Source of the DNA: Escherichia phage vB_EcoM_UP17
DNA: 64,000 nucleotides
Sequence record: LR746137
Reading direction: 5' to 3' (one strand)
The notes beneath the pieces were generated by a model, which made no database searches, was not told the origin of the DNA, and worked only from the letters and a program-made list of their open reading frames with translations. The position numbers and the translations under genes were made by a program. Shown here in pieces: positions 24,101 to 60,122 of the stretch (position 1 is its first letter; every line of letters begins with the position of its first letter).

Positions 24101-24179
24101 TCTTTTCTCCTCTCTTTGCGGGGAACTATTCCCCGCTTCATGTGATATATCTTACTCTTTTTAAGAATTATGTCAACAC

Positions 24180-44954: not shown

Positions 44955-45221
44955 TTATTTTTTGTTTTCTTGCCAGGATAGGACACCTAACCAAAAATAC
45001 ATATCGCCCCGCGCCCCTGGTGGTATCTTGCTTTCCCCGCCGCCACTGCAAGCCCATAGATAACCATTTGCGAACGTATCAAAATGATCTATCTCTTCCA
45101 CCTTATGATCGCCCAGGTTGAGAACGGTTTCAACCTTTAAGCCCGTTGCGCTTGCTACCTGGTGCACCGTGCCGCCTTGCCAGCCCAATGAGTGCATAAG
45201 GTGTAATGTAGTATTTGTCAT
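44955..45221 (-). CDS. Hypothetical protein in GC-rich island
   Basis: 88 aa non-repetitive ORF, own promoter, opposite strand to surrounding genes. Confidence 0.35.
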   Translation of the reverse strand: MTNTTLHLMHSLGWQGGTVHQVASATGLKVETVLNLGDHKVEEIDHFDTFANGYLWACSGGGESKIPPGARGDMYFWLGVLSWQENKK

Positions 45222-45268
45222 GGTATCGCCCTTTCTTTGATGTGCGCCCTGGTTGGCGCGGTAGAAAG

Positions 45269-45297
45269 ATGATAGCCCTTTCTTTTATATATAGCAA
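45269..45297 (-). promoter_or_regulatory. Promoter for 88-aa island gene
   Basis: Minus strand TTGCTA, 17 nt spacer, TATCAT. Confidence 0.4.
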
Positions 45298-45330: not shown

Positions 45331-45389
45331 TTGACGTTCGCCAGGTGGCGGCATAATATTTACCACGTAGGGCGGCAATGGTGCCGCTC
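45331..45389 (+). promoter_or_regulatory. Promoter-hairpin unit
   Basis: TTGACG-17-TAATAT, then 10 nt, then hairpin GGGCGGCA-ATGG-TGCCGCTC (45370-45389). Confidence 0.55.
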
Positions 45390-45408
45390 ATTATTTGGAG
45401 TTAAAATC

Positions 45409-45606
45409 ATGGCAACATTGCACATTGTGGCGAAAGCTGGACAAATAAACGTGGTAGTAAACGGTTTTACTGAGTTCAGTCATCCCCAGGATGATCATGA
45501 AACGGTTTTATCTTTCATTGATTCACTGTTAGAAATGGGAGTAATTACAGAAGACCAGCACGCTACAAAATGCAAACGCGTTAATCAGATTGCAGGAATA
45601 GAATAA
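45409..45606 (+). CDS. Early small protein
   Basis: ATG 45409 after GGAG; track start 45331 is TTG inside -35. Confidence 0.5.
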   Translation: MATLHIVAKAGQINVVVNGFTEFSHPQDDHETVLSFIDSLLEMGVITEDQHATKCKRVNQIAGIE

Positions 45607-45612
45607 AAAGTA

Positions 45613-45675
45613 TTGACAACAACCAACAACCTGATAAGATGTATCACATAGGGCGGCGGAATGGTCCAGCCGCTC
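45613..45675 (+). promoter_or_regulatory. Promoter-hairpin unit
   Basis: TTGACA-16-TAAGAT, hairpin 45651-45675 with AATGGT loop. Confidence 0.5.
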
Positions 45676-45698
45676 ACAACAGAAGAGAGATTATAATC

Positions 45699-45971
45699 AT
45701 GGCATCATATAGCGCAACAATGATCGTAGCTGGCACCACTGGTAAACCTATGAGCGGTGGCGGATCTTTCGCAAATATCAACATCGACGGGCGTTTATCC
45801 CTGGACGCAGCGATCACCGTGGCGCGGGAAACATTTAAGAAAGAATGTAAATTCAATAAACAAGATTATCTCGGTTTTGCTATTGAAAAAACCGCGCGCT
45901 TTGTTGATTATAAAAGCCCGAAAATGGTTGATACTACACTAAAAGCGCAAGATGTAGCATTTTTGCTTTAA
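45699..45971 (+). CDS. Early small protein
   Basis: ATG 45699 downstream of hairpin. Confidence 0.5.
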   Translation: MASYSATMIVAGTTGKPMSGGGSFANINIDGRLSLDAAITVARETFKKECKFNKQDYLGFAIEKTARFVDYKSPKMVDTTLKAQDVAFLL

Positions 45972-45974
45972 GGT

Positions 45975-46030
45975 TTGACATTAGCGAATAATTTACTAAT
46001 ATGTTGCATAAGGCGGGAATAGTTCCCGCT
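45975..46030 (+). promoter_or_regulatory. Promoter-hairpin unit
   Basis: TTGACA-16-TAATAT, hairpin GCGGGAA-TAG-TTCCCGC. Confidence 0.5.
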
Positions 46031-46047
46031 ATTTGTAAGGTGGTAGA

Positions 46048-46305
46048 ATGTTTTACATCAAATTAAAAGGTCACGTGATCGCGTTCAAAGATAACGCTTT
46101 TTACAGATTAGCAAAATATGCGTTAATACATCCCCACTATGTTTATATAAGGGGGCGTGATGAAATAAATATCTTTGATCAAACAACATGCGAGAACATC
46201 GAGATCCGCAAGGTTGGCGTACGTGATTATCGTACATCTTTCTACCCTTGCAAAGATTCCGCAAGTCTTTTTAAAGTATGCCAATTGTTGAAAAAAGGTG
46301 GTTAA
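46048..46305 (+). CDS. Early small protein
   Basis: 85 aa, SD AAGGTGG. Confidence 0.5.
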   Translation: MFYIKLKGHVIAFKDNAFYRLAKYALIHPHYVYIRGRDEINIFDQTTCENIEIRKVGVRDYRTSFYPCKDSASLFKVCQLLKKGG

Positions 46306-46306
46306 T

Positions 46307-46864
46307 ATGGGCCGCGAATATGTGATCCAGTCTTGGGTAAAACATGAAGCAGATGATCCGCGCATCATTCCCGATCATCTTATCGATGAATCCACGGGGT
46401 ATAGCGGTGAGCAAATAGGTAACAGATTAGCACGTAGTAACGGCAACGTAAAAGCGCGTTATTTGCGCCCTGGCTGGCTGGCAAATGGTAACGCTGATTT
46501 ATCCAGTGCGGAAGATGCGAGCGACGGCGCGAAAGATAATCCTTTGTACAAAGTTGATCCGGCTTTTCGTGTCCTGGATGAATACCCCAGCAAGATAGCG
46601 GCGCTTGATGAAGCACTGGAAAGTAAGCGCATCACCTGGACCGCTTACAACATGGCAAAAAACGTACTTGATGGTAAATTGATTCAAGCCGAAAGAAAAT
46701 TAGCCAAAATTGCAGCCATAGCCCAGGAGGAAGACGAGGAGACAACGGAAGAGGAAGAGTACGAAGAGATCCCGCCGTTGTTGTGTGTTGATGCTTTTCC
46801 TGATTATCAGCCGACAGAGGAAGAAAAAAGGATCGCACTAGAAAACTTTGAAAATAGTCTTTGA
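46307..46864 (+). CDS. Early protein with acidic C-terminal region
   Basis: ATG 46307 after AGGTGG; EDEETTEEEEYEE. Confidence 0.5.
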   Translation: MGREYVIQSWVKHEADDPRIIPDHLIDESTGYSGEQIGNRLARSNGNVKARYLRPGWLANGNADLSSAEDASDGAKDNPLYKVDPAFRVLDEYPSKIAALDEALESKRITWTAYNMAKNVLDGKLIQAERKLAKIAAIAQEEDEETTEEEEYEEIPPLLCVDAFPDYQPTEEEKRIALENFENSL

Positions 46865-46919
46865 CATATCGCCGCCACTAGCATAATATTTACCACGTAG
46901 GGCGGCAATGGTGCCGCTC
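46861..46919 (+). promoter_or_regulatory. Promoter-hairpin unit
   Basis: TTGACA overlapping upstream stop, 17 nt, TAATAT, hairpin 46900-46919. Confidence 0.5.
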
Positions 46920-46946
46920 ATAGTGAAATTATACAAGAGGCTTACA

Positions 46947-47042
46947 ATGATTAATAAAGAAAATAGCTTGACGGTTGGAACGATTAACGCTATCATTCTA
47001 GCCGTTCCATTTTGGATTGTAGTGGCGGTTATTATTTTCTAA
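46947..47042 (+). CDS. Hydrophobic micro-peptide (31 aa), not in ORF track
   Basis: ATG after AAGAGG; MINKENSLTVGTINAIILAVPFWIVVAVIIF. Confidence 0.3.
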   Translation: MINKENSLTVGTINAIILAVPFWIVVAVIIF

Positions 47043-47051
47043 AAAATATTC

Positions 47052-47112
47052 TTGACAACGTTTTTTAATCTGATAAGATGTGTCACATAGGGCGGCGGAA
47101 TACTTCCCCGCC
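47052..47112 (+). promoter_or_regulatory. Promoter-hairpin unit
   Basis: TTGACA-16-TAAGAT, imperfect hairpin 47090-47112. Confidence 0.5.
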
Positions 47113-47133
47113 AAAACAAAAAAGGGTAACACA

Positions 47134-47496
47134 ATGAGCAAGCAAATCAATACTATCATGTTTAATCTGGTATCTTTCCGCGATGATATGAAAAATTTAC
47201 CACGTGAAACGGTTGATATTCATGTTTCAGCTTATCGCGCCCTTATTGATATGTTACCGCTAAAACGTGATCAACATGCCGCTAATATGATGCTTAATGC
47301 TATGCTTAAAAAGATGATTCAAACGGATCTTACTCTGGCGTATGAGTATCAAGGGCGCTTATATGCTACTTACAACAAAGCGGTACCTGGTCTGGGAAGT
47401 ACCGAAGAGTTGCACGGCTTAAACCTGGATCAAAACAATTGGGATAGTATGCGCCGCGTTATGGTATGGGCCGAAAGCGGTAAAATTTACGAATAA
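47134..47496 (+). CDS. Early small protein
   Basis: ATG 47134 after AAGGG; track GTG start lies in hairpin. Confidence 0.5.
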   Translation: MSKQINTIMFNLVSFRDDMKNLPRETVDIHVSAYRALIDMLPLKRDQHAANMMLNAMLKKMIQTDLTLAYEYQGRLYATYNKAVPGLGSTEELHGLNLDQNNWDSMRRVMVWAESGKIYE

Positions 47497-47502
47497 AAAC
47501 GG

Positions 47503-47559
47503 TTGACACTGTTTAAAATTCTGGTATAGTTTATCACGTAGGGCGGCAATGGTGCCGCC
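47503..47559 (+). promoter_or_regulatory. Promoter-hairpin unit
   Basis: TTGACA-16-TATAGT, hairpin 47541-47559. Confidence 0.5.
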
Positions 47560-47579
47560 AACAATAAAAGGTTAACATC

Positions 47580-47759
47580 ATGGCTATCATTGCAAAAACT
47601 GAGATTATAGGTTTAGATTCGATCCTCCTGGCTTATGAGGAAACTTTAAAAATGTATGTAGTGACCTATGGTGATTATGTGCGTGAATACGAATACATTG
47701 ATCTTGCTTTCGAATGTTACATTAGCCAGGTCAATAAAGCCTATAACGATTATCGTTAA
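47580..47759 (+). CDS. Early small protein (59 aa), not in ORF track
   Basis: ATG after AAAAGG; frame anchored to flanking track genes. Confidence 0.4.
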   Translation: MAIIAKTEIIGLDSILLAYEETLKMYVVTYGDYVREYEYIDLAFECYISQVNKAYNDYR

Positions 47760-47778
47760 AAGTTTTAGTCTTATACTA

Positions 47779-47830
47779 TTGACAATGAGTGATAGTATAA
47801 GCATAATAACTTTTATCGGGAATACTTCCC
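47779..47830 (+). promoter_or_regulatory. Promoter-hairpin unit
   Basis: TTGACA-17-CATAAT, hairpin GGGAA-TAC-TTCCC. Confidence 0.5.
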
Positions 47831-47856
47831 ACTAACCAAAAAGAGAGAGTGACACC

Positions 47857-48222
47857 ATGGCTATTAATATCAATGTTTCCGCTTATGCTACCCTGGCTGA
47901 CACGGCTAAAATTGAATTATCCAGCATTGAGGCGGTGCATATTAGCGCCCGTCGCTGGTTTCAACAGTCCTACGGTAACACATATTTTTCTTTAAGCGTG
48001 GACGTTGAGATCGGCGGTAAACTGATCGAAGTGGTTAACGTGCCGTTTCAATATGGTTATGGTGATCATTTTGATACCGTCGCTATGGAAGAATTTAGCA
48101 AGGTTGTTGACCTGGAAGGCAAGGAATTTTCACGCGGCGCGTATCTTTCCCGTTTTTGCCGTGACAATGGGATCACTGTATACAGTCATGCAAGCGATGT
48201 TAAACGTAAAAAAGATTTATAA
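47857..48222 (+). CDS. Early small protein
   Basis: 121 aa, SD AGAGAGAG. Confidence 0.5.
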   Translation: MAININVSAYATLADTAKIELSSIEAVHISARRWFQQSYGNTYFSLSVDVEIGGKLIEVVNVPFQYGYGDHFDTVAMEEFSKVVDLEGKEFSRGAYLSRFCRDNGITVYSHASDVKRKKDL

Positions 48223-48228
48223 AAGTAG

Positions 48229-48287
48229 TTGACAGCACGAATAAAAAGCGTAAAATGTTTTATATCGAGAGCGGGAATAGTTCCCGC
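48229..48287 (+). promoter_or_regulatory. Promoter-hairpin unit
   Basis: TTGACA-16-TAAAAT, hairpin GCGGGAA-TAG-TTCCCGC. Confidence 0.5.
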
Positions 48288-48312
48288 CTCACTGAAAAAA
48301 GAGATTAACATC

Positions 48313-48552
48313 ATGGCTAAATCTAAAATGTATAACGGTCACAAAAACAAAACTCATTGGAATGTAAGCCTTTGGATTAATAACGATGAGTCATTATACC
48401 GCACCGCGAAAGAATTTATTAGTTATAATTCTAACCGTAATGATGCGGCGTGTGATATGATGCTATTCCTGGAACAGATTGGACAAGATAAAACACCGGA
48501 CGGATTCAAGTATAGTAAAACTGCAATCCGCGCCGCGATGGTTGGAATGTAA
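48313..48552 (+). CDS. Early small protein
   Basis: ATG 48313 after AAGAGA. Confidence 0.5.
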   Translation: MAKSKMYNGHKNKTHWNVSLWINNDESLYRTAKEFISYNSNRNDAACDMMLFLEQIGQDKTPDGFKYSKTAIRAAMVGM

Positions 48553-48561
48553 TAAAAACAG

Positions 48562-48616
48562 TTGACAACGTTTAAAATTAGTGTAAGATGTATCACATAG
48601 GGGCGACAAGCGCCCC
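48562..48616 (+). promoter_or_regulatory. Promoter-hairpin unit
   Basis: TTGACA-16-TAAGAT, hairpin GGGGCG-ACAAG-CGCCCC. Confidence 0.5.
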
Positions 48617-48638
48617 TCCTAACGAAGAGAGAAAAATC

Positions 48639-48866
48639 ATGGCTATCAATATTGTTCGCGTATCCGGCACCGTTGGCACTTCCCAGGTTATTGCAGTTGT
48701 AACAAACAAAAAGATTAATGATGTATGTGAGATCTTGAATAAGTGGGCTGTTGCTAATTTTGGGGAATATGCAAGCGTCGAGTACATCGAATCCTACCAG
48801 GTGCCAACCATCAGCCTGACCGATCTCAACGTTGATCGCCTGTTATGCCTGGATGAATTAATCTGA
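48639..48866 (+). CDS. Early small protein
   Basis: ATG 48639 after GAAGAGAGA. Confidence 0.5.
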   Translation: MAINIVRVSGTVGTSQVIAVVTNKKINDVCEILNKWAVANFGEYASVEYIESYQVPTISLTDLNVDRLLCLDELI

Positions 48867-48875
48867 AAAAGATTG

Positions 48876-48933
48876 TTGACACCGGAAAGAAAAAGAGTAA
48901 ACTGTATTACGTAGGGCGGCAATGGTGCCGCTC
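48876..48933 (+). promoter_or_regulatory. Promoter-hairpin unit
   Basis: TTGACA-16-TAAACT, hairpin GGGCGGCA-ATGG-TGCCGCTC. Confidence 0.5.
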
Positions 48934-48956
48934 ACAACAGAAGAGAGATTATCACG

Positions 48957-49169
48957 ATGGCTAATATCCGCACACTGTTAAAAAATGCAAGTCAAGTTTT
49001 ATTTTCAGATGACGAGTATTTCAATAAAGACATTACAGGCGTGAAGAATATCAAAGATGTAAAAAGTGTTATGGGTATATATTGCAATGTTAAACGTGTT
49101 GGAACGTTCGGTGATAAAGTATTGTACCAATCAGGTGATTACAATTTTACTTTGACGATTATTTCATAA
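48957..49169 (+). CDS. Early small protein
   Basis: 70 aa, SD AGAAGAGAG. Confidence 0.5.
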   Translation: MANIRTLLKNASQVLFSDDEYFNKDITGVKNIKDVKSVMGIYCNVKRVGTFGDKVLYQSGDYNFTLTIIS

Positions 49170-49174
49170 AACGC

Positions 49175-49235
49175 TTGCAATACTGCAAAATAAAGTAAAC
49201 TGTATTACATCAAGGCGGCGGAATGGTCCACCGCC
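49175..49235 (+). promoter_or_regulatory. Promoter-hairpin unit (weaker promoter)
   Basis: TTGCAA then TAAACT-like, hairpin 49212-49235 with AATGGT loop. Confidence 0.4.
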
Positions 49236-49259
49236 TAACAAAGAGAAGAGGAAAATATC

Positions 49260-49427
49260 ATGATCACTTTCGCTACCCGTGAAGCCGCTCGCAACGTTGC
49301 ACGTAAAGTTAACGCCGCCAACCTGGGCGCTACTTTTAAAGCCCCGGTGAAAGATGAATCAGGCAAATGGATCTTCCCTGGTCTGCGTCACGCTGATAAG
49401 CTAGGCACTTTAAGCCTTAAAAAATAA
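49260..49427 (+). CDS. Early small basic protein (55 aa), not in ORF track
   Basis: ATG after AGAGAAGAGG; begins MITFA like the next gene. Confidence 0.4.
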   Translation: MITFATREAARNVARKVNAANLGATFKAPVKDESGKWIFPGLRHADKLGTLSLKK

Positions 49428-49430
49428 TCG

Positions 49431-49468
49431 TTGACTTTTCGTTATAGCGCCTTATAATGGGCGCTATA
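49431..49468 (+). promoter_or_regulatory. Promoter with -10 hexamer inside a 9-bp hairpin loop
   Basis: TTGACT-16-TATAAT; TATAGCGCC and GGCGCTATA pair around loop TTATAATG. Confidence 0.45.
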
Positions 49469-49501
49469 GAGAAGAGAAACCACTACTGACAAGGAAACAC
49501 C

Positions 49502-49723
49502 ATGATCACTTTCGCTATTGTCGCCGTTGTTGCTGGTCAAGTTTACGTAAACGATACATTCACCACAGAAGACAAGGCCGCAGGAGACATAACCGCCGTT
49601 TACAATGAGTGCAAGGCAGTAGAAAGGATGTTAGCGCCTTGTATGTTAATGAGTGAACGCCAGGACGGGATAACAGTGTTTACTAACATTGAGACAGGGT
49701 ACCAAATGGTAGTAACAAAATAA
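49502..49723 (+). CDS. Early small protein
   Basis: 73 aa, N-terminus MITFA shared with 49260 ORF. Confidence 0.5.
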   Translation: MITFAIVAVVAGQVYVNDTFTTEDKAAGDITAVYNECKAVERMLAPCMLMSERQDGITVFTNIETGYQMVVTK

Positions 49724-49726
49724 AGC

Positions 49727-49784
49727 TTGACACGGATTTAATTTTCAGTAAACTGTTACACGTAGGGCGGGAATAGTTCCCGCT
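49727..49784 (+). promoter_or_regulatory. Promoter-hairpin unit
   Basis: TTGACA-16-TAAACT, hairpin GCGGGAA-TAG-TTCCCGC. Confidence 0.5.
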
Positions 49785-49801
49785 AAAAAGAGAGAAAGAC
49801 C

Positions 49802-50155
49802 ATGAAAGCACAAAATGCAATTAAAGAGTACATCCTTGCCGCTATCGATTTTAATGATTACGGTATTACAACCGAAAAAGAGAAGATCGCGGAATTGATG
49901 CGCCGTTTTAATTCCGAGTACTGGTACCCTGATAACCAATCACGTTTTAATTATAGTATTGTTAAAGCACTTGCATCATGGTTACAAGGTTTGCCATCAG
50001 ATATTAATATCGCTTTCGAATATTGGGAAATTGATCGCTTGTTAACATCCTGGGGATACATTAAAGAGAATAGCAGCGATGATAAAATCCAACGAGAAAG
50101 GGAAAATTATTGGCTTTATATTGCAGGCGTGATCCTTGCTTGCTCTTATGAATGA
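49802..50155 (+). CDS. Early small protein
   Basis: 117 aa, SD AGAGAGAAAG. Confidence 0.5.
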   Translation: MKAQNAIKEYILAAIDFNDYGITTEKEKIAELMRRFNSEYWYPDNQSRFNYSIVKALASWLQGLPSDINIAFEYWEIDRLLTSWGYIKENSSDDKIQRERENYWLYIAGVILACSYE

Positions 50156-50161
50156 TAAACC

Positions 50162-50215
50162 TTGACAATTTTACAAAACAGTTTAAATTAATAATATAGC
50201 GGCAATGGTGCCGCT
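50162..50215 (+). promoter_or_regulatory. Promoter-hairpin unit
   Basis: TTGACA-16-TAAATT, hairpin AGCGGCA-ATGG-TGCCGCT. Confidence 0.5.
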
Positions 50216-50234
50216 CATATAAAGAGGAAACAAA

Positions 50235-50381
50235 ATGAATACATCTAATCGCGCAGAAAAAATTCAATCTTCCAAGATCCGTAAGGCCTGGAATGAGGAA
50301 GTGATCCGCAAAGGCGACAAGCGCAATAAAACAAAGCGCGGGAAGAGTGACAAATATAATTGGATGGATTTAGAGGATTAA
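50235..50381 (+). CDS. Small basic protein (48 aa), not in ORF track
   Basis: ATG after AAGAGG; Lys/Arg-rich. Confidence 0.35.
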   Translation: MNTSNRAEKIQSSKIRKAWNEEVIRKGDKRNKTKRGKSDKYNWMDLED

Positions 50382-50389
50382 CATAACAA

Positions 50390-50415
50390 GGGCGCACCAA
50401 GCGCCCTTTCTTTTT
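50390..50415 (+). terminator. Rho-independent terminator
   Basis: GGGCGC-ACCAA-GCGCCC then TTTCTTTTT. Confidence 0.6.
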
Positions 50416-50436
50416 ACATGTAGAGGATAAACAAAA

Positions 50437-50622
50437 ATGATTTTAAACGAGCTTAAAACAGCCTACAGCGCAACATTAAAAATAGCCGTGCGTTACCGTG
50501 ACGAATACGGTTTTATCGCGCAGGGCGTGATCCTGGGCTTTTCTGACGATGGTTTGATCTATGTTGATGCACATCACAACAAGGTTAAACCTGAAAACGT
50601 CATTAGCATAAAATATCTTTAA
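50437..50622 (+). CDS. Early small protein
   Basis: 61 aa, SD GAGGATAA. Confidence 0.45.
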   Translation: MILNELKTAYSATLKIAVRYRDEYGFIAQGVILGFSDDGLIYVDAHHNKVKPENVISIKYL

Positions 50623-50628
50623 AAGTGG

Positions 50629-50688
50629 TTGACACCATAACCGGACCTGTTAAACTGTATTACATCAGGCGGGGAATAGTTCCCCACC
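50629..50688 (+). promoter_or_regulatory. Promoter-hairpin unit
   Basis: TTGACA-16-TAAACT, hairpin GGGGAA-TAG-TTCCCC. Confidence 0.5.
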
Positions 50689-50707
50689 ATACAAAAAGGT
50701 AAATATT

Positions 50708-50914
50708 ATGATCACCGCAAAACAAGAAAAAATCATTATCGACGTTGCAGCCGTTGCCGCTATTGCTATTATTGGATCTTATTATGATACCCGTTTCCCG
50801 TCGGCTATGCATGAGGTCGCCGCCGTTGCATCAGTTGGCGTGCTGTTTTACGTTGGTAAACGCTATTTATCACCAATGATTAACAAGCTGACACCGTGGA
50901 AAAATAAAGGTTGA
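50708..50914 (+). CDS. Early small membrane protein
   Basis: 68 aa, hydrophobic core. Confidence 0.5.
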   Translation: MITAKQEKIIIDVAAVAAIAIIGSYYDTRFPSAMHEVAAVASVGVLFYVGKRYLSPMINKLTPWKNKG

Positions 50915-50965
50915 TCCTGTTTTACATTGTGTTATAGTTATCGTGTAGGGCGGCAATGGTGCCGC
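50911..50965 (+). promoter_or_regulatory. Promoter-hairpin unit
   Basis: TTGATC-16-TATAGT, hairpin GGCGGCA-ATGG-TGCCGC. Confidence 0.45.
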
Positions 50966-50985
50966 GCCCCTTTGAGGATGCAATC

Positions 50986-51270
50986 ATGAGTAAAGCTAAC
51001 ACCGTGCTAATGTTTTCCCTGGTTAATGATCCCGCTTACTTGTCCAACATGACGCAGGAGGGTGACACATTAACGGCAACATTCACCAATAAGCTTGACC
51101 GAGTGATCATCATCTCACTGAAAACAGTTAGTAAAGGCTTTTACTCGTTAGCTTATCATTGGATCACCGATACCGATGAGACAAGCCAGGACTATAGCGC
51201 CCCTTTCCCTGAATCAATGGCACGGGAGATCATCGCCGCCGTTGTAAATGATGGTTTGTTTACTGCATAA
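50986..51270 (+). CDS. Early small protein
   Basis: ATG 50986 after GAGGATG. Confidence 0.5.
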   Translation: MSKANTVLMFSLVNDPAYLSNMTQEGDTLTATFTNKLDRVIIISLKTVSKGFYSLAYHWITDTDETSQDYSAPFPESMAREIIAAVVNDGLFTA

Positions 51271-51288
51271 AATAATTCAGAAAAAGGC

Positions 51289-51345
51289 TTGCAATCATTT
51301 TGGGATAATGTATATTTAATGCATAGGGCGGCGGGAATAGTTCCC
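51289..51345 (+). promoter_or_regulatory. Promoter-hairpin unit
   Basis: TTGCAA-17-TATATT, hairpin GGGAA-TAG-TTCCC. Confidence 0.45.
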
Positions 51346-51368
51346 AAAGCAAACGAGAGGATTACACG

Positions 51369-51488
51369 ATGAGCAAGTACACAGTAGAATACACGGTAGA
51401 AAATCCGGCAGTATCCGAAGGTAAAAAGATGACATTTGCCATCAGTATAATCGCTTTCGTTGTCACTATCTTATCAATCATCTTATAA
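51369..51488 (+). CDS. Hydrophobic micro-peptide (39 aa), not in ORF track
   Basis: ATG after GAGAGG; C-terminal TM segment. Confidence 0.3.
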   Translation: MSKYTVEYTVENPAVSEGKKMTFAISIIAFVVTILSIIL

Positions 51489-51498
51489 GGTGCACACC

Positions 51499-51678
51499 AT
51501 GAAAACATCAGACGTTATCAAATCATCCAAGATTATTAAAGAGATCGCCCTTGCCACTGGCATTGAGATCGAGGAAGTGATCGCGCTCAATCTTACAGAA
51601 GACAACTTGCGCAGCTATGAAACGGAAAGCGTGAAAGCAAGTGGCGCGATCCTGGCATATAATCCGGCTAACAAATAA
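51499..51678 (+). CDS. Early small protein
   Basis: ATG 51499, 10 nt after previous stop. Confidence 0.45.
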   Translation: MKTSDVIKSSKIIKEIALATGIEIEEVIALNLTEDNLRSYETESVKASGAILAYNPANK

Positions 51679-51679
51679 C

Positions 51680-51734
51680 TTGACAAGCTGAATCAACCTG
51701 ATAAGATGTATCACATAGGGGCGACAAGCGCCCC
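51680..51734 (+). promoter_or_regulatory. Promoter-hairpin unit
   Basis: TTGACA-16-TAAGAT, hairpin GGGGCG-ACAAG-CGCCCC. Confidence 0.5.
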
Positions 51735-51755
51735 GCCTAACAGAGAGATAGAATC

Positions 51756-52034
51756 ATGACCATCACCAAATTATCCACCGAAGAAATCGAACAAGTGCTG
51801 ACTACTAATCTGCAAGATTGGAAGCGTGAAGCAGATTTGCAAGCGGTTTGCAAGCTGAATGCAGAATTAACGGAAAATGATATTGACACTATTGTTAGCC
51901 CCGATTTTTATGATGCTATTCATGATGATTCGATTATCCTTGAAACACTGTTAGATAACACTTGGATCAATCCTGATTTGGCAGCTTATGACCGTAGCGC
52001 CTTTATCACTATCCACAATATTTACAACCGTTAA
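51756..52034 (+). CDS. Early small acidic protein
   Basis: 92 aa, SD AGAGAGATAG. Confidence 0.5.
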   Translation: MTITKLSTEEIEQVLTTNLQDWKREADLQAVCKLNAELTENDIDTIVSPDFYDAIHDDSIILETLLDNTWINPDLAAYDRSAFITIHNIYNR

Positions 52035-52043
52035 GGGGATAAC

Positions 52044-52154
52044 ATGAATCCGAAAGACATGCAAGCCTGGAAAGGGTATGATGATCTAAGCGCCTTGCGC
52101 AATAAGTCAAGCCGTAACCTTAGACGATTGGAAGCAAAGAAAAAGAAAAAATAG
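52044..52154 (+). CDS. Small basic ORF (36 aa), not in ORF track
   Basis: ATG after AAGGGGA; Lys-rich tail. Confidence 0.3.
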   Translation: MNPKDMQAWKGYDDLSALRNKSSRNLRRLEAKKKKK

Positions 52155-52155
52155 T

Positions 52156-52213
52156 TTGACAAGTCCGCGTAGTCTGGTAATATGTATCTTGTAGGGCGGC
52201 AATGGTGCCGCTC
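52156..52213 (+). promoter_or_regulatory. Promoter-hairpin unit
   Basis: TTGACA-16-TAATAT, hairpin GGGCGGCA-ATGG-TGCCGCTC. Confidence 0.5.
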
Positions 52214-52232
52214 ACAAGAAGAGAGAAAAATC

Positions 52233-52517
52233 ATGAAAATCACAAAAAGCCTGACTAATTATGCAGCACGTCGCGGATTATGTTTAACCGTTGAAAACTT
52301 AGGGAAAGAAGACTTTTTGTGTTTTTGGGAGCTTGAGAATGATTGCGAGTGGATGTTTTCTTATTCTATCTGCGAAGATCAAAACGGTTGTTTGTTAACC
52401 TGGCGCGGTAATATCTATTTACCGGAAGAAATTAAAGAAGAGCTACCAGGTACGATCATGACAGAGAGACAGCTTAAGGAAGTGATCAATTTTGTAGGGC
52501 AAAACATTAAAAAATAA
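52233..52517 (+). CDS. Early small protein
   Basis: ATG 52233 after AAGAAGAGAGA. Confidence 0.5.
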   Translation: MKITKSLTNYAARRGLCLTVENLGKEDFLCFWELENDCEWMFSYSICEDQNGCLLTWRGNIYLPEEIKEELPGTIMTERQLKEVINFVGQNIKK

Positions 52518-52518
52518 T

Positions 52519-52581
52519 TTGACAGCAGGCAAACAACGTAGTAAAGTTTATTACATAGAGCGGCGGAATGGTCCACCGCTC
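52519..52581 (+). promoter_or_regulatory. Promoter-hairpin unit
   Basis: TTGACA-17-TAAAGT, hairpin 52558-52581 with AATGGT loop. Confidence 0.5.
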
Positions 52582-52602
52582 ACAACAGAAGAGAAACAAA
52601 TC

Positions 52603-52773
52603 ATGATCCCGACTATGTTTTATGTATCGCGCAAAGGTCACAATATTTTTTGGTCTGAAGATTTAAATGAAGCTATGACGTTTGCCCGTGATCGTGTTGC
52701 TATCGGTGGCGTTAACATCACCGTAACCGATGAAAATGGTATTGAATACTATAACGGCGACGATGAAGAATAA
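52603..52773 (+). CDS. Early small protein
   Basis: ATG 52603 after AGAAGAGAAA. Confidence 0.5.
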   Translation: MIPTMFYVSRKGHNIFWSEDLNEAMTFARDRVAIGGVNITVTDENGIEYYNGDDEE

Positions 52774-52810
52774 TTGACAACCTGAAAGCTGTATTTTTAA
52801 AATACAGCTT
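52774..52810 (+). promoter_or_regulatory. TTGACA followed by perfect 8-bp hairpin
   Basis: AAGCTGTA-TTTTTAAAA-TACAGCTT directly after a -35-like hexamer. Confidence 0.35.
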
Positions 52811-52831
52811 AGAAAATGTAGTAAATAAACC

Positions 52832-52893
52832 TTGACAATGGTTTGTTATCTGGTAAAGTGTACTACGTAGGGCGGGGCAATGGTGCAACGCCC
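52832..52893 (+). promoter_or_regulatory. Promoter-hairpin unit (variant hairpin)
   Basis: TTGACA-16-TAAAGT, hairpin GGGCGGGGCAATGGTGCAACGCCC. Confidence 0.45.
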
Positions 52894-52911
52894 ATTAATG
52901 AGGGTAGAATC

Positions 52912-53016
52912 ATGTTAGAGAAAATTTTCACGGTTGCAGTGGTTGGCCTGGCGTTATCGGTTGGAGTAGTTGCAACTATGGCTAACATGATCCTATCTTC
53001 CCACGGTATCGGTTAA
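52912..53016 (+). CDS. Hydrophobic micro-peptide (34 aa), not in ORF track
   Basis: ATG after GAGGG; single TM-like segment. Confidence 0.3.
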   Translation: MLEKIFTVAVVGLALSVGVVATMANMILSSHGIG

Positions 53017-53026
53017 GGTGAAACAA

Positions 53027-53242
53027 ATGATCACGAACAAAACAGGCAAAACGGAATTTTTACGCGGCTTACAAGTTGGTAAGCCTGAGATCTGGCATTG
53101 CACGAAGTCCGCGCATAATGAAATGAAAGATTTCACCGCTACTTTACAACGTGTTAAAATATCTATTACGCAGAAAAAAGCCTTATTAGTAGTAGAAAAC
53201 GAGATCCCGCAAACTATTATTATTGTCGAGCGTACAGCATGA
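53027..53242 (+). CDS. Early small protein
   Basis: ATG 53027 after AAGGTG. Confidence 0.45.
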   Translation: MITNKTGKTEFLRGLQVGKPEIWHCTKSAHNEMKDFTATLQRVKISITQKKALLVVENEIPQTIIIVERTA

Positions 53243-53625
53243 AAACAGAAATCATTATTGAAATCATCAACGGCTATAAAGAAGCCTTTATTTTTGCTGA
53301 ATCAGCAAGGGATCATGAAGGTAATTTTATTGATAACTTAGACGATTATGATTTTTCTCCTAGTGCGGATCAACGGATCGCCCAGGATGTAACAGTCTTT
53401 ATTAATGCTAATCTTGCCGCTATCTCTGAGGCAATGAGCGACGGCGCAACAGCCAACCAGATCGGGAATGATTTACATTTTACCCGTAACAGTCACGGCG
53501 TAGGCTTTTGGGATCGCCCTGAAATATACACCACTAACACGGCGAACCGCCTAACCAATGCAGCTAAGTTTATGCCGAACGTGTCGGCTTACATTGGTGA
53601 AGATAATTTGATTTATATTGAATAA
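53239..53625 (+). CDS. Early protein
   Basis: 128 aa, ATGA overlap with upstream gene. Confidence 0.5.
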   Translation: MKTEIIIEIINGYKEAFIFAESARDHEGNFIDNLDDYDFSPSADQRIAQDVTVFINANLAAISEAMSDGATANQIGNDLHFTRNSHGVGFWDRPEIYTTNTANRLTNAAKFMPNVSAYIGEDNLIYIE

Positions 53626-53631
53626 AAAGTA

Positions 53632-53689
53632 TTGACACAGATCGCCAGTGTGCTAATATTTACCACGTAGGGCGGCAATGGTGCCGCTC
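53632..53689 (+). promoter_or_regulatory. Promoter-hairpin unit
   Basis: TTGACA-16-TAATAT, hairpin GGGCGGCA-ATGG-TGCCGCTC. Confidence 0.5.
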
Positions 53690-53708
53690 CCCGAAAAAGG
53701 TAAACATT

Positions 53709-53900
53709 ATGAAAACCATCTCCTACCTGGAATCGAATAACATGTTTTTTGCGCCCGTTGATGAAATCATCGAAGCATTAAACAACGAGGAAGGGATCAA
53801 AGGTTTATCTTATAGCCAACTTTTAGGAATGGTTGCAGCAAATGAAGAGCTTGCTTACTATGTTGAAAATTTTGATGAAGCTGTAATCTTTACAAAATAA
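53709..53900 (+). CDS. Early small acidic protein
   Basis: 63 aa, SD AAAAAGG. Confidence 0.5.
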   Translation: MKTISYLESNNMFFAPVDEIIEALNNEEGIKGLSYSQLLGMVAANEELAYYVENFDEAVIFTK

Positions 53901-53903
53901 TCC

Positions 53904-53960
53904 TTGATCTAATCTCTTAGATAACTTATATTTAATGTGTAGGGCGGCAATGGTGCCGCC
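53904..53960 (+). promoter_or_regulatory. Promoter-hairpin unit
   Basis: TTGATC-17-TATATT, hairpin GGGCGGCA-ATGG-TGCCGCC. Confidence 0.5.
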
Positions 53961-53978
53961 GATAACGAGGAAAGTAAA

Positions 53979-54278
53979 ATGGAAACTATCGCTATTGTTA
54001 CCGTAGAAAAGCTGGTTGTTGGTGATGTATTCGCGTTAATGGTGCCTAACAGCAGCAAGCTGGGCGCTTATGAAGTAATGGATCATAAAAATGAATCATT
54101 TGGCGACGGTTGCACAATGGCGGTAAAATCTTTAAAGGATGGAATCATCCGCCAGGCTAACTGGCACAAAGGGAATCAAGTCGGTTTAATATCAGCTAAT
54201 TTCTTGCCAGAAGAGCAAACGTTAGACCAACTATCAGGCGGTAAGACGTTAGCCGAACTACTGGAAACAGCGATCTAA
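53979..54278 (+). CDS. Early small protein
   Basis: 99 aa, SD GAGGAAAG. Confidence 0.5.
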   Translation: METIAIVTVEKLVVGDVFALMVPNSSKLGAYEVMDHKNESFGDGCTMAVKSLKDGIIRQANWHKGNQVGLISANFLPEEQTLDQLSGGKTLAELLETAI

Positions 54279-54286
54279 TCAACAAA

Positions 54287-54302
54287 GGGGCGGCAACGCC
54301 CC
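54287..54302 (+). promoter_or_regulatory. Leader hairpin with GCAA tetraloop, no obvious promoter
   Basis: GGGGCG-GCAA-CGCCCC, 20 nt before ATG 54323. Confidence 0.4.
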
Positions 54303-54322
54303 ACATCAGAAAGGAAAAGATT

Positions 54323-54559
54323 ATGAGTATTGCAACAGTATTAACCGCCGTTAAAACCGCTGAATCATCCGGCTTGCATGTTGAGCTTATAGATCAACCA
54401 GGTGGCGATCTCCTTGTCCAGGTTTACCCGCCGAAAGTAGGGGATGATCATTATTGGTGTTATTCTGATACGTTCGAACAAGTAGACACGAAAGCGATCA
54501 CAACCTTTATTTTAAAAGCCGTTGAAGAAAATAACTTTCATTATAACATCAATCAATAA
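54323..54559 (+). CDS. Early small protein
   Basis: 78 aa, SD AAAGGAAAAG. Confidence 0.5.
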   Translation: MSIATVLTAVKTAESSGLHVELIDQPGGDLLVQVYPPKVGDDHYWCYSDTFEQVDTKAITTFILKAVEENNFHYNINQ

Positions 54560-54569
54560 ACCATAAGCA

Positions 54570-54584
54570 GGGCGGTAACGCCCC
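54570..54584 (+). promoter_or_regulatory. Leader hairpin with GTAA tetraloop
   Basis: GGGCG-GTAA-CGCCC upstream of ATG 54614. Confidence 0.4.
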
Positions 54585-54613
54585 ATTAAACGCAATAGGA
54601 AGAGGATAGACGT

Positions 54614-54898
54614 ATGAAAAAGATGATCGCAGTAGTTGCCCTGGTTGTTGGTATTAACGCGCCTACACTGGCTAATGAGTTGCCAGAATCCATCACGCTA
54701 ACCGACATCAACGCAGTGAATCGGATCGGTGTTAATTATCGCCTATGCCTTGCCGCTAAAACTTTCCAGGACGGCACGACAGAGTACTACGGATTCGAGG
54801 GTATCCGCTGCGGTGAGCTTGCACGCGACCTTAAGGAAGATCCAGACCTTGAGGCCATACCGATGACCGTAAACGGTAAAGCCCACGTAAACCGCTAA
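54614..54898 (+). CDS. Secreted small protein
   Basis: Signal peptide MKKMIAVVALVVGINAPTLA. Confidence 0.5.
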   Translation: MKKMIAVVALVVGINAPTLANELPESITLTDINAVNRIGVNYRLCLAAKTFQDGTTEYYGFEGIRCGELARDLKEDPDLEAIPMTVNGKAHVNR

Positions 54899-54900
54899 CC

Positions 54901-55035
54901 ATGAGAAAGGTAATCATCACAATGGGGATCGTAGTAGCAACGCTGGCGCTTATCCCTTTCATGGTTGAACATGTGCTGATCAGTGTTGTCCTTATAGTCA
55001 GTGACCTATTGGAAACGGTTGGCACCTGGTTTTAA
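54901..55035 (+). CDS. Hydrophobic micro-peptide (44 aa, or 37 aa from internal ATG 54922), not in ORF track
   Basis: Two hydrophobic segments; weak SD; terminator follows. Confidence 0.3.
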   Translation: MRKVIITMGIVVATLALIPFMVEHVLISVVLIVSDLLETVGTWF

Positions 55036-55043
55036 GATAATAA

Positions 55044-55070
55044 ATAGGGCTTGCAATAGTCCTATTTTTT
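55044..55070 (+). terminator. Rho-independent terminator
   Basis: ATAGGGC...GTCCTAT stem then TTTTTT. Confidence 0.5.
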
Positions 55071-55209
55071 GTTATACTTGTTGAACGGGCGGCACCTGGG
55101 AGCAGGGGAAGATAATCACCGGAAGACTCCGCTATATATTGATAACTAACGCCTATCAAACAACAAAACATCAAAGGAACAAACTATCAAATCTTTACAA
55201 TTCCACCTA

Positions 55210-55270
55210 TTGACACCGGATCACGCTTACACTATTATTTATCACGTAGGGCGAGCAATACAGCAAGCCC
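55210..55270 (+). promoter_or_regulatory. Promoter with degenerate hairpin
   Basis: TTGACA-17-TATTAT; GGGC...GCCC short stem at 55249-55270. Confidence 0.45.
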
Positions 55271-55287
55271 ACAAAGAGGAAAATAAA

Positions 55288-55656
55288 ATGAGCAAATCAG
55301 CAATTAAAGCACTTGAAAAAGCACAAAAAGTGATCGCCACTTCCACCACTGGCACAAGTATTAATCTGGTCGCTTACTTGGAAGATGAAACTATCCGTAA
55401 AAATTGGCGTAATGCTGATTTACTGGCTTGCTTATTGATTAATAGTGTCGCTAATGCTTTCCAGTGTGAAACAGCCGAGAGCCTAGAGGAAAACTTGTTT
55501 GATAATATGGATCAAGCCATTGAAACCTATATACAATCAAACCTGGATAACTGGAACAGTAAAACATGGCCCGACAATTTACGCGATACAACTGATCAAC
55601 TGATCCGCCTTGCCCTGATGGTTGAACGCGATAACATTCACAACCGCACAAAGTAA
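55288..55656 (+). CDS. Early protein
   Basis: ATG 55288 after AAGAGGAAAA. Confidence 0.5.
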   Translation: MSKSAIKALEKAQKVIATSTTGTSINLVAYLEDETIRKNWRNADLLACLLINSVANAFQCETAESLEENLFDNMDQAIETYIQSNLDNWNSKTWPDNLRDTTDQLIRLALMVERDNIHNRTK

Positions 55657-55713
55657 GATTATACAAGGGCGCACTAAGCGCCCTTTAACGTAAAGAAATG
55701 TAAATAATGCGCT

Positions 55714-55750
55714 ATCCCCTATTGACAGGGGATCGGCGTTATATTATATT
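55714..55750 (+). promoter_or_regulatory. Promoter whose -35 sits in the loop of a 7-bp inverted repeat
   Basis: ATCCCCT-ATTGAC-AGGGGAT; TTGACA 55722-55727, TATAT-rich -10 about 17 nt on. Confidence 0.4.
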
Positions 55751-55795
55751 TAACTCACTGGCAGCAAACAACGAAACGAAACAAAGGACAACACC

Positions 55796-56215
55796 ATGAA
55801 CATTAAATCAAATAATCCAGCTTACTCCTTCGACAACGCTTTTTGTCACGGTAGCGCCGCTAAAGGATTCGAAATCGATGGTAAATTGGTTATCGTGAAC
55901 GTTGACGGGGAAGAGGTTGCAGTATATCCGGTAAACGATGTTAAAAGCCGTTTACAATGCCGCATGGATGTTACCGCATATCAGCTTGATCCGATCCGTG
56001 TAGTTGCCCTGGTATTAGAGGAAGAGATCAAAGCAATGCATCACAGCAATAAGTTTATTGGTGACGCGCAGGATAATATGAACGTTTGCCGCCATAAAGT
56101 TAATGAAGCCTTGAAAGAGTATGGTTTTAAGGATCTGATGATTAAACGTGATGAAAAATTCCGCTTTCGTAATGACCTGGCAAACCGGATCTACTCAATC
56201 TATGAAGCGTTATAA
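55796..56215 (+). CDS. Early protein
   Basis: 139 aa, SD AAAGGACAA. Confidence 0.5.
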   Translation: MNIKSNNPAYSFDNAFCHGSAAKGFEIDGKLVIVNVDGEEVAVYPVNDVKSRLQCRMDVTAYQLDPIRVVALVLEEEIKAMHHSNKFIGDAQDNMNVCRHKVNEALKEYGFKDLMIKRDEKFRFRNDLANRIYSIYEAL

Positions 56216-56230
56216 TTGACAACAAAACAA

Positions 56231-56257
56231 GGGGCGCACCAAGCGCCCTTTCTTTTT
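56231..56257 (+). terminator. Rho-independent terminator closing the early array
   Basis: GGGGCGC-ACCAA-GCGCCC then TTTCTTTTT. Confidence 0.6.
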
Positions 56258-57176: not shown

Positions 57177-57275
57177 AATACTATCGCTACGCGATATGTT
57201 AAGCACCTTCTCTTAAACGTAAATAAAATCAGAAAATTCTTGATTTATTTTGGCTTTTATGTTAATAAACGTTTA

Positions 57276-57787: not shown

Positions 57788-57814
57788 GATGGCTAACGAT
57801 GAGAGGGGATTATC

Positions 57815-60117: not shown

Positions 60118-60122
60118 AGCCA

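Follow-up and report, generated by a model that had tools for sequence, protein, structure and literature searches.

The stretch analysed here (the window) comprised 64,000 nucleotides (nt) of Escherichia phage vB_EcoM_UP17 (sequence record LR746137), a phAPEC8-like phage of the genus Phapecoctavirus (Stephanstirmvirinae), and the analysis concerned a block of small genes in which a promoter followed by a hairpin is repeated in front of gene after gene. The block, at 45.4-56.2 kb, was found to contain 34 likely genes of 34-185 amino acids (aa). Its best match was Escherichia phage Mt1B1_P17 (95% identity over 97% of its length), followed by further Phapecoctavirus matches in phAPEC8, ZCKP1, vB_Ec-G1, and ESCO5, by the Justusliebigvirus phages at approximately 85% identity, and by weaker matches in the rV5-like phages. 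The counterpart block of phAPEC8 was found to span both ends of the linear record and to adjoin clustered plus-strand genes, among them those of an ATPase and an endonuclease, the minus-strand genes of replication and nucleotide metabolism being located farther out. A PHROG scan of ten of the cassette genes placed all ten in families of unknown function, and a tRNA search of the window found none.

Between 45331 and 55270, scans with our own scripts recovered 23 units on the + strand in which a promoter was followed by a hairpin and a ribosome-binding site (RBS) (Table 1). Each unit was approximately 75-90 nt long and contained, in this order, an A/T-rich tract, a sigma-70 promoter, an initial sequence, the hairpin, a purine-rich Shine-Dalgarno (SD) leader, and the start codon. 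The 25 nt upstream of the -35 box contained 73% A+T against 59% for the block, and the stop codon of the preceding gene was located within this tract, 3-12 nt ahead of the -35 box. An exact TTGACA was present in 17 of the 23 units, the spacer being 16 or 17 nt, followed by the presence of a -10 box of the form TAnnnT, which carried a TGn extension in several units. The stretch between the -10 box and the stem contained conserved (G/T)TA(T/C)CAC(G/A)TA nucleotides, and the stem was found to be GC-rich with 6-11 base pairs (bp).

The hairpins were found to belong to a few recurring types. Type A contained GGGCGGCA-ATGG-TGCCGCTC, type A' contained GCGGCGGA-ATGG-TCCACCGC, type B contained GCGGGAA-TAG-TTCCCGC, and type C contained GGGGCG-ACAAG-CGCCCC; one-off variants were also present in the window, and an extra form, GCGGGAAA-TGG-TTTCCCGC, was found in sister phages. 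The hairpin was strong in 21 units and weak or decayed in two (47779 and 51289). At four more promoters (49431, 52774, 55042, and 55714) a hairpin enclosed the -10 or the -35 box. A unit of its own was found for approximately 27 of the 34 genes, in keeping with the initial annotation of this DNA, which had spoken of about 25 genes fronted by a promoter and a hairpin. That annotation had also reported a 16-mer, GCGGCAATGGTGCCGC, nine times and had named other recurring stems. The 16-mer was recovered at exactly the positions it had given (45372, 46902, 47543, 48916, 50199, 50950, 52196, 53672, and 53944), with exactly nine copies in the window, all on the + strand, and the other stems were present as well (GCGGGAATAGTTCCCGC at 46013, 48271, and 49767; GGGGCGACAAGCGCCCC at 48600 and 51718).

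The repetition was found to depart far from chance. No copy of GCGGCAATGGTGCCGC appeared in 100 runs of dinucleotide-preserving shuffles, and the window contained 29 perfect GC-rich hairpins against approximately 1.1 in Markov simulations. Sixteen of these 29 were located 8-14 nt past a -10 hexamer; the remaining 13 were mostly ordinary terminator-like hairpins with A-runs and T-runs at their flanks. The promoter-hairpin feature is real and statistically robust. The type A 21-mer was found in only seven stretches on five contigs of IMG/VR, and the type A sequence is therefore narrowly distributed.

The position of the hairpin was found to follow the promoter. The distance from the end of the -10 box to the outermost base pair was 10.0 nt on average (standard deviation 0.75; range 8-11), and that from the hairpin to the start codon was 20.6 +/- 2.7 nt (range 17-28); the tight gap on one side and the looser gap on the other indicate that the hairpin is placed by the promoter and not by the RBS. 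The figure of 9-14 nt given earlier for the first distance held for the perfect core of the stem, whereas for the outermost base pair it was replaced by the 8-11 nt found here. With the usual E. coli start at approximately 7 nt past the -10 box, transcription is predicted to start 2-5 nt ahead of the stem, and conserved C-A/C-R steps were found at positions 5-8 after the -10 box. Folding, which had been proposed as a check, gave a single 5' hairpin for each predicted leader (5' untranslated region), with energies between -11.5 and -17.6 kcal/mol (z-scores between -2.2 and -4.4), the RBS remaining unpaired. The earlier suggestion that the hairpin would sit at the extreme 5' end of each mRNA stands as far as its register is concerned, which is locked to the promoter; the start 2-5 nt ahead of it is a prediction.

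A hairpin in the same place was found in rV5_ev147 (Vequintavirinae), where at 7222, 9766, 13598, and 15118 it began 10 nt past the -10 box of consensus promoters. The rV5 stems were of other sequence (GGCGGGAATGTTTCCCGCC and GGGGCAAGCCCC), and further rV5 promoters were found to have no hairpin.

The nucleotides that follow the hairpins were not those of ordinary terminators. The following 8 nt contained at most three T in 20 of the 23 unit hairpins against five to six T at the control terminators 50388 and 56229, a lack of T-runs which, on the sequence, argues against canonical termination by the unit hairpins. Rfam 15 gave no match at the gathering score over the whole window and none at E<=1 over 44-58 kb. 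Three further candidates were rejected: antisense terminators, as a T-run followed the hairpin on neither strand; a coding repeat, as the hairpins were all intergenic; and RNase III sites, as the stems contained only 6-11 bp. By folding energy 16 hairpins were more stable in the sense and four in the antisense orientation, the copies not being independent of one another, and the stems of types A and B contained G-U pairs, which favour the sense RNA; the A' family, by its C.A mismatches, points to the antisense strand, and the comparison is therefore ambiguous.

Orthologous genes of the relatives, approximately 74-99% identical over their first 150 nt, were found to retain the hairpin in place and to differ in its type. 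The unit at 45613 contained type A' in the window, GGGCGGGAAGTGGTTTCCCGCTC in ZCKP1, and GGGCGGCAATAGTGCCGCTC in Paula. The unit at 48562 contained type C in the window and GGCGGGAAATGGTTTCCCGC, which has the form GGCGGGAA(A/G)TGGTTTCCCGC, in three relatives, and the type was also switched between phages at the units 48876 and 52519. An alignment by structure, N-padded and comprising 82 distinct units, was dropped, as it left the register between the types open to two readings (GGGCGG or GGCGG) and contained spurious outer bulges; a covariance model seeded on type A took its place. The model gave 14 matches at E<0.01 in the window, all on the + strand and within the block, and those in phAPEC8 were likewise confined to the + strand of the block. 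Over ten sources 80 matches were found, and in the 48 distinct aligned sequences standard pairs occupied 95.5% of the cells. Most stem pairs were invariant in this alignment; one stem pair was either C-G (27) or G-C (11), and another was G-U (25), G-C (15), or A-U (5). The covariation that had been proposed earlier as a check across related phages was found, with a score of 0.152 against 0.083 in shuffles and none of 500 shuffles as high, in an alignment that is fitted to its model and made of related sequences.

The loops were found to vary widely (ATGG, ATAG, ACGG, ATGA, TAG, TGG, TGT, TAC, CAC, ACAAG, and AATAAG), which is an argument against a protein that reads the loop. As far as these comparisons indicate, it is the structure rather than the sequence that is maintained, the potential to form a hairpin surviving the replacement of its sequence.

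A separate observation concerns the unit at 45331: in place of its type A hairpin, the counterparts of 45360-45388 in Mt1B1_P17 (approximately 3880-3992) and in ZCKP1 (approximately 5880-5992) were found to have a different leader, containing ...GGTGAGGATCTCCATAATCCACCGT... with a -10-like CATAAT between inverted repeats. This leader recurs in Paula, where it precedes the gene orthologous to 46948.

Comparison of the block with four close relatives for insertions and deletions revealed a second property of the units, on which the initial annotation had been silent: they appear as the junction points at which genes are gained, lost, or replaced among sister phages. The gene 53709-53900 was missing in phAPEC8, Mt1B1_P17, and vB_Ec-G1, the deletion junction being located inside the two flanking units, which are of type A and have 35-66 nt in common there, and in phAPEC8 the promoter of unit 21 was found merged with unit 22, of which the downstream half is left. 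The gene 54323-54559 was deleted in ZCKP1 and vB_Ec-G1, with a joint of 54302 to 54570 between the promoterless hairpins 54285 and 54568, followed in vB_Ec-G1 by a deletion of 55688-56226 with a joint of 55687 to 56227 between two copies of a terminator hairpin. Insertions were found in Mt1B1_P17 at unit 23 and between 52774 and 52832, and in ZCKP1 at the hairpin 55042, where a replacement from unit 23 through the closing terminator was found as well. The ZCKP1 deletion with the joint of 47587 to 47853 was located in the common gene-start region and not at a hairpin, and the recombining repeat therefore reaches through the start codon.

Altogether 17 of the 24 junction ends were located within 5 nt of a unit, for which P was about 7e-10 against the whole region and, with 59% expected, 0.17 against non-coding DNA alone. 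Repeated approximately 25 times in one orientation, the units are sequences on which homologous recombination and gene conversion can act. Judged by the joints, the units have demonstrably served as substrates of homologous recombination and of type-swapping; they are not claimed to be hotter than other intergenic repeats.

Table 1. Promoter-hairpin units and other elements of the block and its surroundings. Promoters are given as -35 box, spacer length in nt, and -10 box.
Element	Position	Strand	Promoter	Gap (nt)	Hairpin and remarks	Gene
Unit 1	45331..45389	+	TTGACG-17-TAATAT	10	type A, GGGCGGCA-ATGG-TGCCGCTC	45409-45606
Unit 2	45613..45675	+	TTGACA-16-TAAGAT		type A', GGGCGGCGGA-ATGG-TCC(A)GCCGCTC	45699-45971
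Unit 3	45975..46030	+	TTGACA-16-TAATAT		type B, GGCGGGAA-TAG-TTCCCGCT	46048-46305
Unit 4	46861..46919	+	TTGACA-17-TAATAT		type A	46948-47042
Unit 5	47052..47112	+	TTGACA-16-TAAGAT		GGCGG(C)GGAA-TAC-TTCCCCGCC	47134-47496
Unit 6	47503..47559	+	TTGACA-16-TATAGT		type A, GGCGGCA-ATGG-TGCCGCC	47580-47759
Unit 7	47779..47831	+	TTGACA-17-CATAAT		weak 5-bp hairpin, GGGAA-TAC-TTCCC	47857-48222
Unit 8	48229..48290	+	TTGACA-16-TAAAAT		type B, GAG(A)GCGGGAA-TAG-TTCCCGCCTC	48313-48552
Unit 9	48562..48617	+	TTGACA-16-TAAGAT		type C, AGGGGCG-ACAAG-CGCCCCT	48639-48866
Unit 10	48876..48933	+	TTGACA-16-TAAACT		type A	48957-49169
Unit 11	49174..49236	+	CTTGCA-16-TAAACT (weaker -35)		type A', AGGCGGCGGA-ATGG-TCCACCGCCT, C.A mismatch	49260-49427
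Promoter with enclosing hairpin	49431..49470	+	TTGACT-16-TATAAT		-10 in loop of 9-bp hairpin (TATAGCGCC...GGCGCTATA), like the RB49 subclass of promoter-early stem-loop cassettes	49502-49723
Unit 12	49727..49784	+	TTGACA-16-TAAACT		type B	49802-50155
Unit 13	50162..50215	+	TTGACA-16-TAAATT	8	type A, AGCGGCA-ATGG-TGCCGCT	50235-50381
Terminator	50388..50408	+			canonical intrinsic terminator AAGGGCGCACCAAGCGCCCTT, then TCTTTTT	
Unit 14	50629..50688	+	TTGACA-16-TAAACT		type B, GG(C)GGGGAA-TAG-TTCCCC(A)CC	50708-50914
Unit 15	50911..50965	+	TTGATC-16-TATAGT		type A	50986-51270
Unit 16	51289..51345	+	TTGCAA-16-TATATT		decayed, 5' GGGCGGC kept, only 5 bp (GGGAA-TAG-TTCCC)	51369-51488
Unit 17	51680..51734	+	TTGACA-16-TAAGAT		type C	51756-52034
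Unit 18	52156..52213	+	TTGACA-16-TAATAT		type A, stem lengthened by CTTGT/ACAAG	52233-52517
Unit 19	52519..52581	+	TTGACA-17-TAAAGT		type A', GAGCGGCGGA-ATGG-TCCACCGCTC	52603-52773
Promoter with overlapping hairpin	52774..52810	+	TTGACA-18-TAAAAT		AT-rich hairpin AAGCTGTATTT...AAATACAGCTT over the promoter	
Unit 20	52832..52893	+	TTGACA-16-TAAAGT		GGGCG(GG)GCA-ATGG-TGC(AA)CGCCC	52912-53016
Unit 21	53632..53689	+	TTGACA-16-TAATAT		type A	53709-53900
Unit 22	53904..53960	+	TTGATC-17-TATATT		type A	53979-54278
Hairpin without promoter	54285..54304	+			GGGGCGGCAACGCCCC, no T-run, 20 nt ahead of gene	54323-54559
Hairpin without promoter	54568..54586	+			GGGCGGTAACGCCC, 27 nt ahead of gene	54614-54898
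Terminator and promoter combined	55042..55078	+	-35 TTGCAA, -10 TATACT		AAATAGGGCTTGCAATAGTCCTATTT and T-run, -35 in loop, -10 after	
Unit 23	55210..55270	+	TTGACA-17-TATTAT		GGGC(GA)GC-AATACA-GC(AA)GCCC	55288-55656
Terminator-family hairpin	55664..55687	+			AAGGGCGCACTAAGCGCCCTT	
Promoter with enclosing hairpin	55714..55750	+	TTGACA-17-TATATT		-35 in loop of ATCCCC...GGGGAT	55796-56215
Terminator	56229..56251	+			canonical terminator AAGGGGCGCACCAAGCGCCCTTT, then CTTTTT; end of block	
Unit outside the block	24118..24176	-	TTGACA-16-TAAGAT	12	type B, GCGGGGAA-TAG-TTCCCCGC	23126-24100
Divergent unit	45244..45297	-	TTGCTA-17-TATCAT	9	GCGCC-AACCAG-GGCGC	44955-45221

Two units of Table 1 were found on the minus strand. 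The gene of the unit outside the block encodes a membrane protein of 324 aa, which belongs to phrog_7180 (category 'moron, auxiliary metabolic gene and host takeover'), and ends at a terminator at 23102-23119; 23102-24176 is a self-contained moron-like cassette within the module of replication and nucleotide metabolism. The divergent unit at 45244 was kept in all four of the relatives that cover the site. A separate family of terminators, AAGGGCGCAC(C/T)AAGCGCCCTT, was found in three copies (50388-50408, 55664-55687, and 56229-56251), and the linear record of phAPEC8 starts inside its copy of the first. Many cassette genes were found to contain a common RBS and start context, ATCATGGCT (Met-Ala), for example at 47580-47590 and 47853-47862.

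Past the closing terminator, 56260-57800 was found to be almost free of open reading frames (ORFs) over approximately 1.5 kb. Direct as well as inverted copies of the motif ATGGCAATAAT(T)ATGG / CATGGCAATAAT were present in it at 57013, 57550, 57596, and 57773, as were three spaced copies of GCAATA..T...GGGGGC.A, and it gave no Rfam match. Gaps of approximately 1.5-1.7 kb free of coding sequences were found at matching positions in phAPEC8, ZCKP1, vB_Ec-G1, and Paula. An origin, a regulatory role, or a non-coding RNA would each be conceivable here. At approximately 59580-61030, three neighbouring paralogous genes of 145-178 aa were found to have phrog_3710/622/5347 (unknown function) in common; the vB_Ec-G1 record names their counterparts 'goF mRNA metabolism modulator', whereas the PHROG scan backed no named function. 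Among the cassette genes and the ORFs located at 36.7-43.4 kb and at 57.8-61 kb, PHROG scans aimed at an Srd-like, goF-like, or RNA-binding protein matched nothing near the block but families of unknown function.

The closest known arrangement was found in the promoter-early stem-loop cassettes (PeSLs), which are known from the T4-like coliphages RB49 and phi1 (PMC2839356) and, by later work, also from T4/PST and KVP40/nt-1 (PMC4122927), and which bear out the precedent in virulent enterobacterial phages that the initial annotation had mentioned. Both contain an AT-rich tract with the upstream stop codon, a sigma-70 promoter, a GC-rich stem-loop, an SD sequence, and the start of a small ORFan gene; both are clustered in a hyperplastic block. 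The indels and replacements of sister phages join at the PeSL cassettes; here 17 of the 24 junction ends were at units, an excess without significance against non-coding DNA. At four units of the window (49431, 52774, 55042, and 55714) the stem-loop covered the -10 or -35 box in the manner of RB49. The cassettes differ in lineage, being carried here by Stephanstirmvirinae and by rV5 of the Vequintavirinae and there by Straboviridae, and they differ in the dominant geometry. In the 49 kb of RB49 that were checked, the stem-loop was located between the -35 box and the -10 box, as in TTGAC-AGGGGATCACGTATCCCCT-ATACT, or enclosed the -10 box, as in GGGAGTAG-TAAGAT-ACTCCC, and extended from 24 to 5-6 nt before the end of the -10 box or from approximately 14 nt before to 5-6 nt after it. 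The RB49 stem-loop thus lies within the promoter and outside the transcript of its own cassette, whereas in 23 of the 27 units of the window the hairpin was located 8-11 nt past the -10 box, in what is predicted to be its own transcript, and mostly without a T-run. Arbiol et al. name 'downstream of the -10' as a minor PeSL subclass (PMC2839356), and in PST and nt-1 the stem-loop is located upstream of the promoter (PMC4122927). The stem-loops of RB49, PST, and nt-1 are read only by polymerase arriving from upstream and were interpreted as terminators; mini-circles formed by the cassettes are a further trait ascribed to the PeSLs. The type A covariance model gave no match in the 49 kb of RB49, and the hairpin sequences are unrelated. 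The unit is a PeSL-like cassette of an unrelated lineage with another dominant geometry, a difference of degree and lineage and not of kind; this geometry implies what would be a different job for the stem-loop than in the PeSLs.

Two other systems resemble the units in part. The ompA and papA leaders have 5'-terminal stabilising stem-loops (Belasco and colleagues, cited in PMC3997798) and share with the units a stable hairpin a few nt from the 5' end, here predicted, and an accessible RBS after it, an arrangement that would be expected to hinder RppH and 5'-end-dependent RNase E. Each of them is the leader of one particular gene, and its effect on half-life has been measured, whereas one design was found here on approximately 23 mRNAs whose 5' ends are predicted. 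The nut sites (boxA and boxB) of lambdoid phages and the put sites of HK022 likewise have a small hairpin with a GC stem in the leader, just past an early promoter; boxB, however, has a conserved loop, follows boxA, and serves one or two operons that have terminators to overcome, whereas the units contained variable loops, no boxA ahead of them, and a promoter of their own for each gene.

Existing records label the same hairpins in two other ways. The phAPEC8 record NC_020079 gives GTAGGGCGGCAATGGTGCCG and related 20-mers the label 'putative promoter determined with PHIRE'; ten sites bear it, every one of them in the block. In the record of phage Paula (LR865361) the leader hairpins are labelled minus-strand terminators. 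Neither label appears to fit, the 20-mer being the hairpin with the apparent promoter just upstream of it and the Paula terminators being placed on what would be the non-transcribed strand without a T-run. A literature search that did not cover the phAPEC8 and PVP-SE1 genome papers found no paper on a promoter-hairpin unit in this group of phages.

The units are read here, with moderate confidence, as modular early-expression cassettes in which a 5'-proximal hairpin shields and insulates the mRNA and whose repetition drives the shuffling of genes. Unmodified host RNA polymerase would read the near-consensus sigma-70 promoters and would start 2-5 nt ahead of the stem, so that each cassette mRNA would begin with a stable stem-loop. 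The hairpin would make the 5' end less accessible to RppH and to 5'-end-dependent RNase E; both enzymes need single-stranded 5' ends, for which reason 5' structures stabilise E. coli mRNAs (PMC3997798). In read-through transcripts from upstream cassettes it may stand between the cistrons as a block to scanning nucleases and to trimming from the 3' side, a role which would account for the promoterless copies at 54285 and 54568, and it would keep the RBS and leader from pairing with whatever coding sequence comes next. Together these roles would give uniform and strong early expression of any inserted gene, and recombination or gene conversion between units would delete, insert, and swap genes and exchange the hairpin types.

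Several points weigh against this reading. With 3-5 unpaired nt at the 5' end, the protection might be only partial. The hairpins 54285 and 54568 have no promoter, and the 5'-end position is therefore not the whole story. The A' family and the unit at 50629 contained C.A mismatches that become G-U pairs on the antisense strand, and the covariance alignment, as said, was fitted to its own model with related sequences. The stem-loop of an RB49 PeSL lowered the expression of lacZ as strongly as the rrnB T1 terminator (Arbiol et al., PMC2839356). The nearness of the junction ends to the units was not significantly greater than would be expected within non-coding DNA, and in the literature on Stephanstirmvirinae and Vequintavirinae no start-site or transcriptome data were found.

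The reporter result for RB49 (PMC2839356) also speaks for a reading of the hairpins as terminators or attenuators in the manner of the classical PeSLs, which would stop upstream transcription, insulate the genes, and prevent a build-up of read-through. The hairpins are located just past the stop codon of the preceding gene, and in four units a hairpin covers the -10 or -35 box as in RB49. This reading was considered unlikely, as 20 of the 23 hairpins had no T-run in a block in which T-run terminators are present, and as an efficient terminator past its own predicted start would abort its own transcript, a situation from which RB49, with another geometry and with stem-loops outside their own transcripts, is free. 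Slightly less likely still is a site in the RNA that a phage or host protein recognises, whether for antitermination like that of lambda N and boxB, for a translational activator or repressor, or for a processing nuclease that times early expression. The nine identical copies, the recurring AAUGGU loop of types A, A', and A'', the uniform position in the leader, and the label 'goF mRNA metabolism modulator' of two downstream genes in the vB_Ec-G1 record would suit such a site. The loops, however, differ from one another both in sequence and in length and replace each other at orthologous sites, no Rfam match was found even at E<=1, a promoter for each gene makes antitermination unneeded, and the PHROG scan placed the goF-labelled genes only in families of unknown function. 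The 'phage-factor recognition element' offered in the initial annotation is disfavoured, as both the stems and the loops are free to vary and are swapped between orthologous sites.

An element acting in the DNA was held to be very unlikely, either as an operator or roadblock at approximately +3 to +22 that shuts off the early promoters or as a cruciform that affects promoter escape, replication, or recombination. The hairpins are near-perfect palindromes directly past the predicted start site, where repressors often bind, their outer half-sites GGGCGG/CCGCTC are conserved, they coincide with recombination junctions, and the test of strand asymmetry was not decisive; yet the outer half-sites stand at variable distances of approximately 8-14 nt, no half-site of types A and B recurs in type C, one stem pair is most often G-U, which is paired in the sense RNA only, and rV5 has the same register with other sequences. 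The least credence was given to a hairpin with no role in expression, carried along as part of a repeat that is spread or homogenised by recombination or gene conversion like the repetitive extragenic palindromic (REP)-like or selfish intergenic repeats. Identical copies within one genome, decayed copies at 47779 and 51289, and the swapping of types at orthologous sites with coding sequences approximately 74-99% identical are what such a repeat would leave, but not an exact register to the -10 box (standard deviation 0.75 nt) kept across subfamilies, a hairpin potential kept through the replacement of its sequence, or the presence of the hairpins only in the transcribed orientation behind promoters.

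Beyond the reading as protective cassettes, a wider possibility is put forward as doubtful: the hairpin may be a uniform 5' 'self' mark which spares approximately 25 early mRNAs from a 5'-end-dependent decay turned on host transcripts, or which is read by a phage protein that times early expression. RppH and RNase E could make up this pathway, and a factor of the phage, for instance the Srd-like protein reported for rV5, may boost it. If true, the mark would be an unrecognised genome-wide layer of post-transcriptional control in the rV5-like phages, beyond a generic stabiliser or a by-product of recombination.

For annotation, what phAPEC8 lists as 'PHIRE promoters' and Paula as minus-strand 'terminators' would be corrected to one and the same leader hairpin. 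The units would explain how small genes of host takeover and anti-defence are gained, lost, and swapped in the therapeutic candidates phAPEC8, ESCO5, Mt1B1_P17, and ZCKP1. If transcription starts as predicted, nearly every accessory early gene of the rV5- and phAPEC8-like phages would have the same 5' end, and the unit would be a natural module of promoter, 5' hairpin, and open RBS, akin to the insulated parts of synthetic biology. It would thereby offer a handle on how early phage mRNAs survive in a host whose RNA decay begins at the 5' end.

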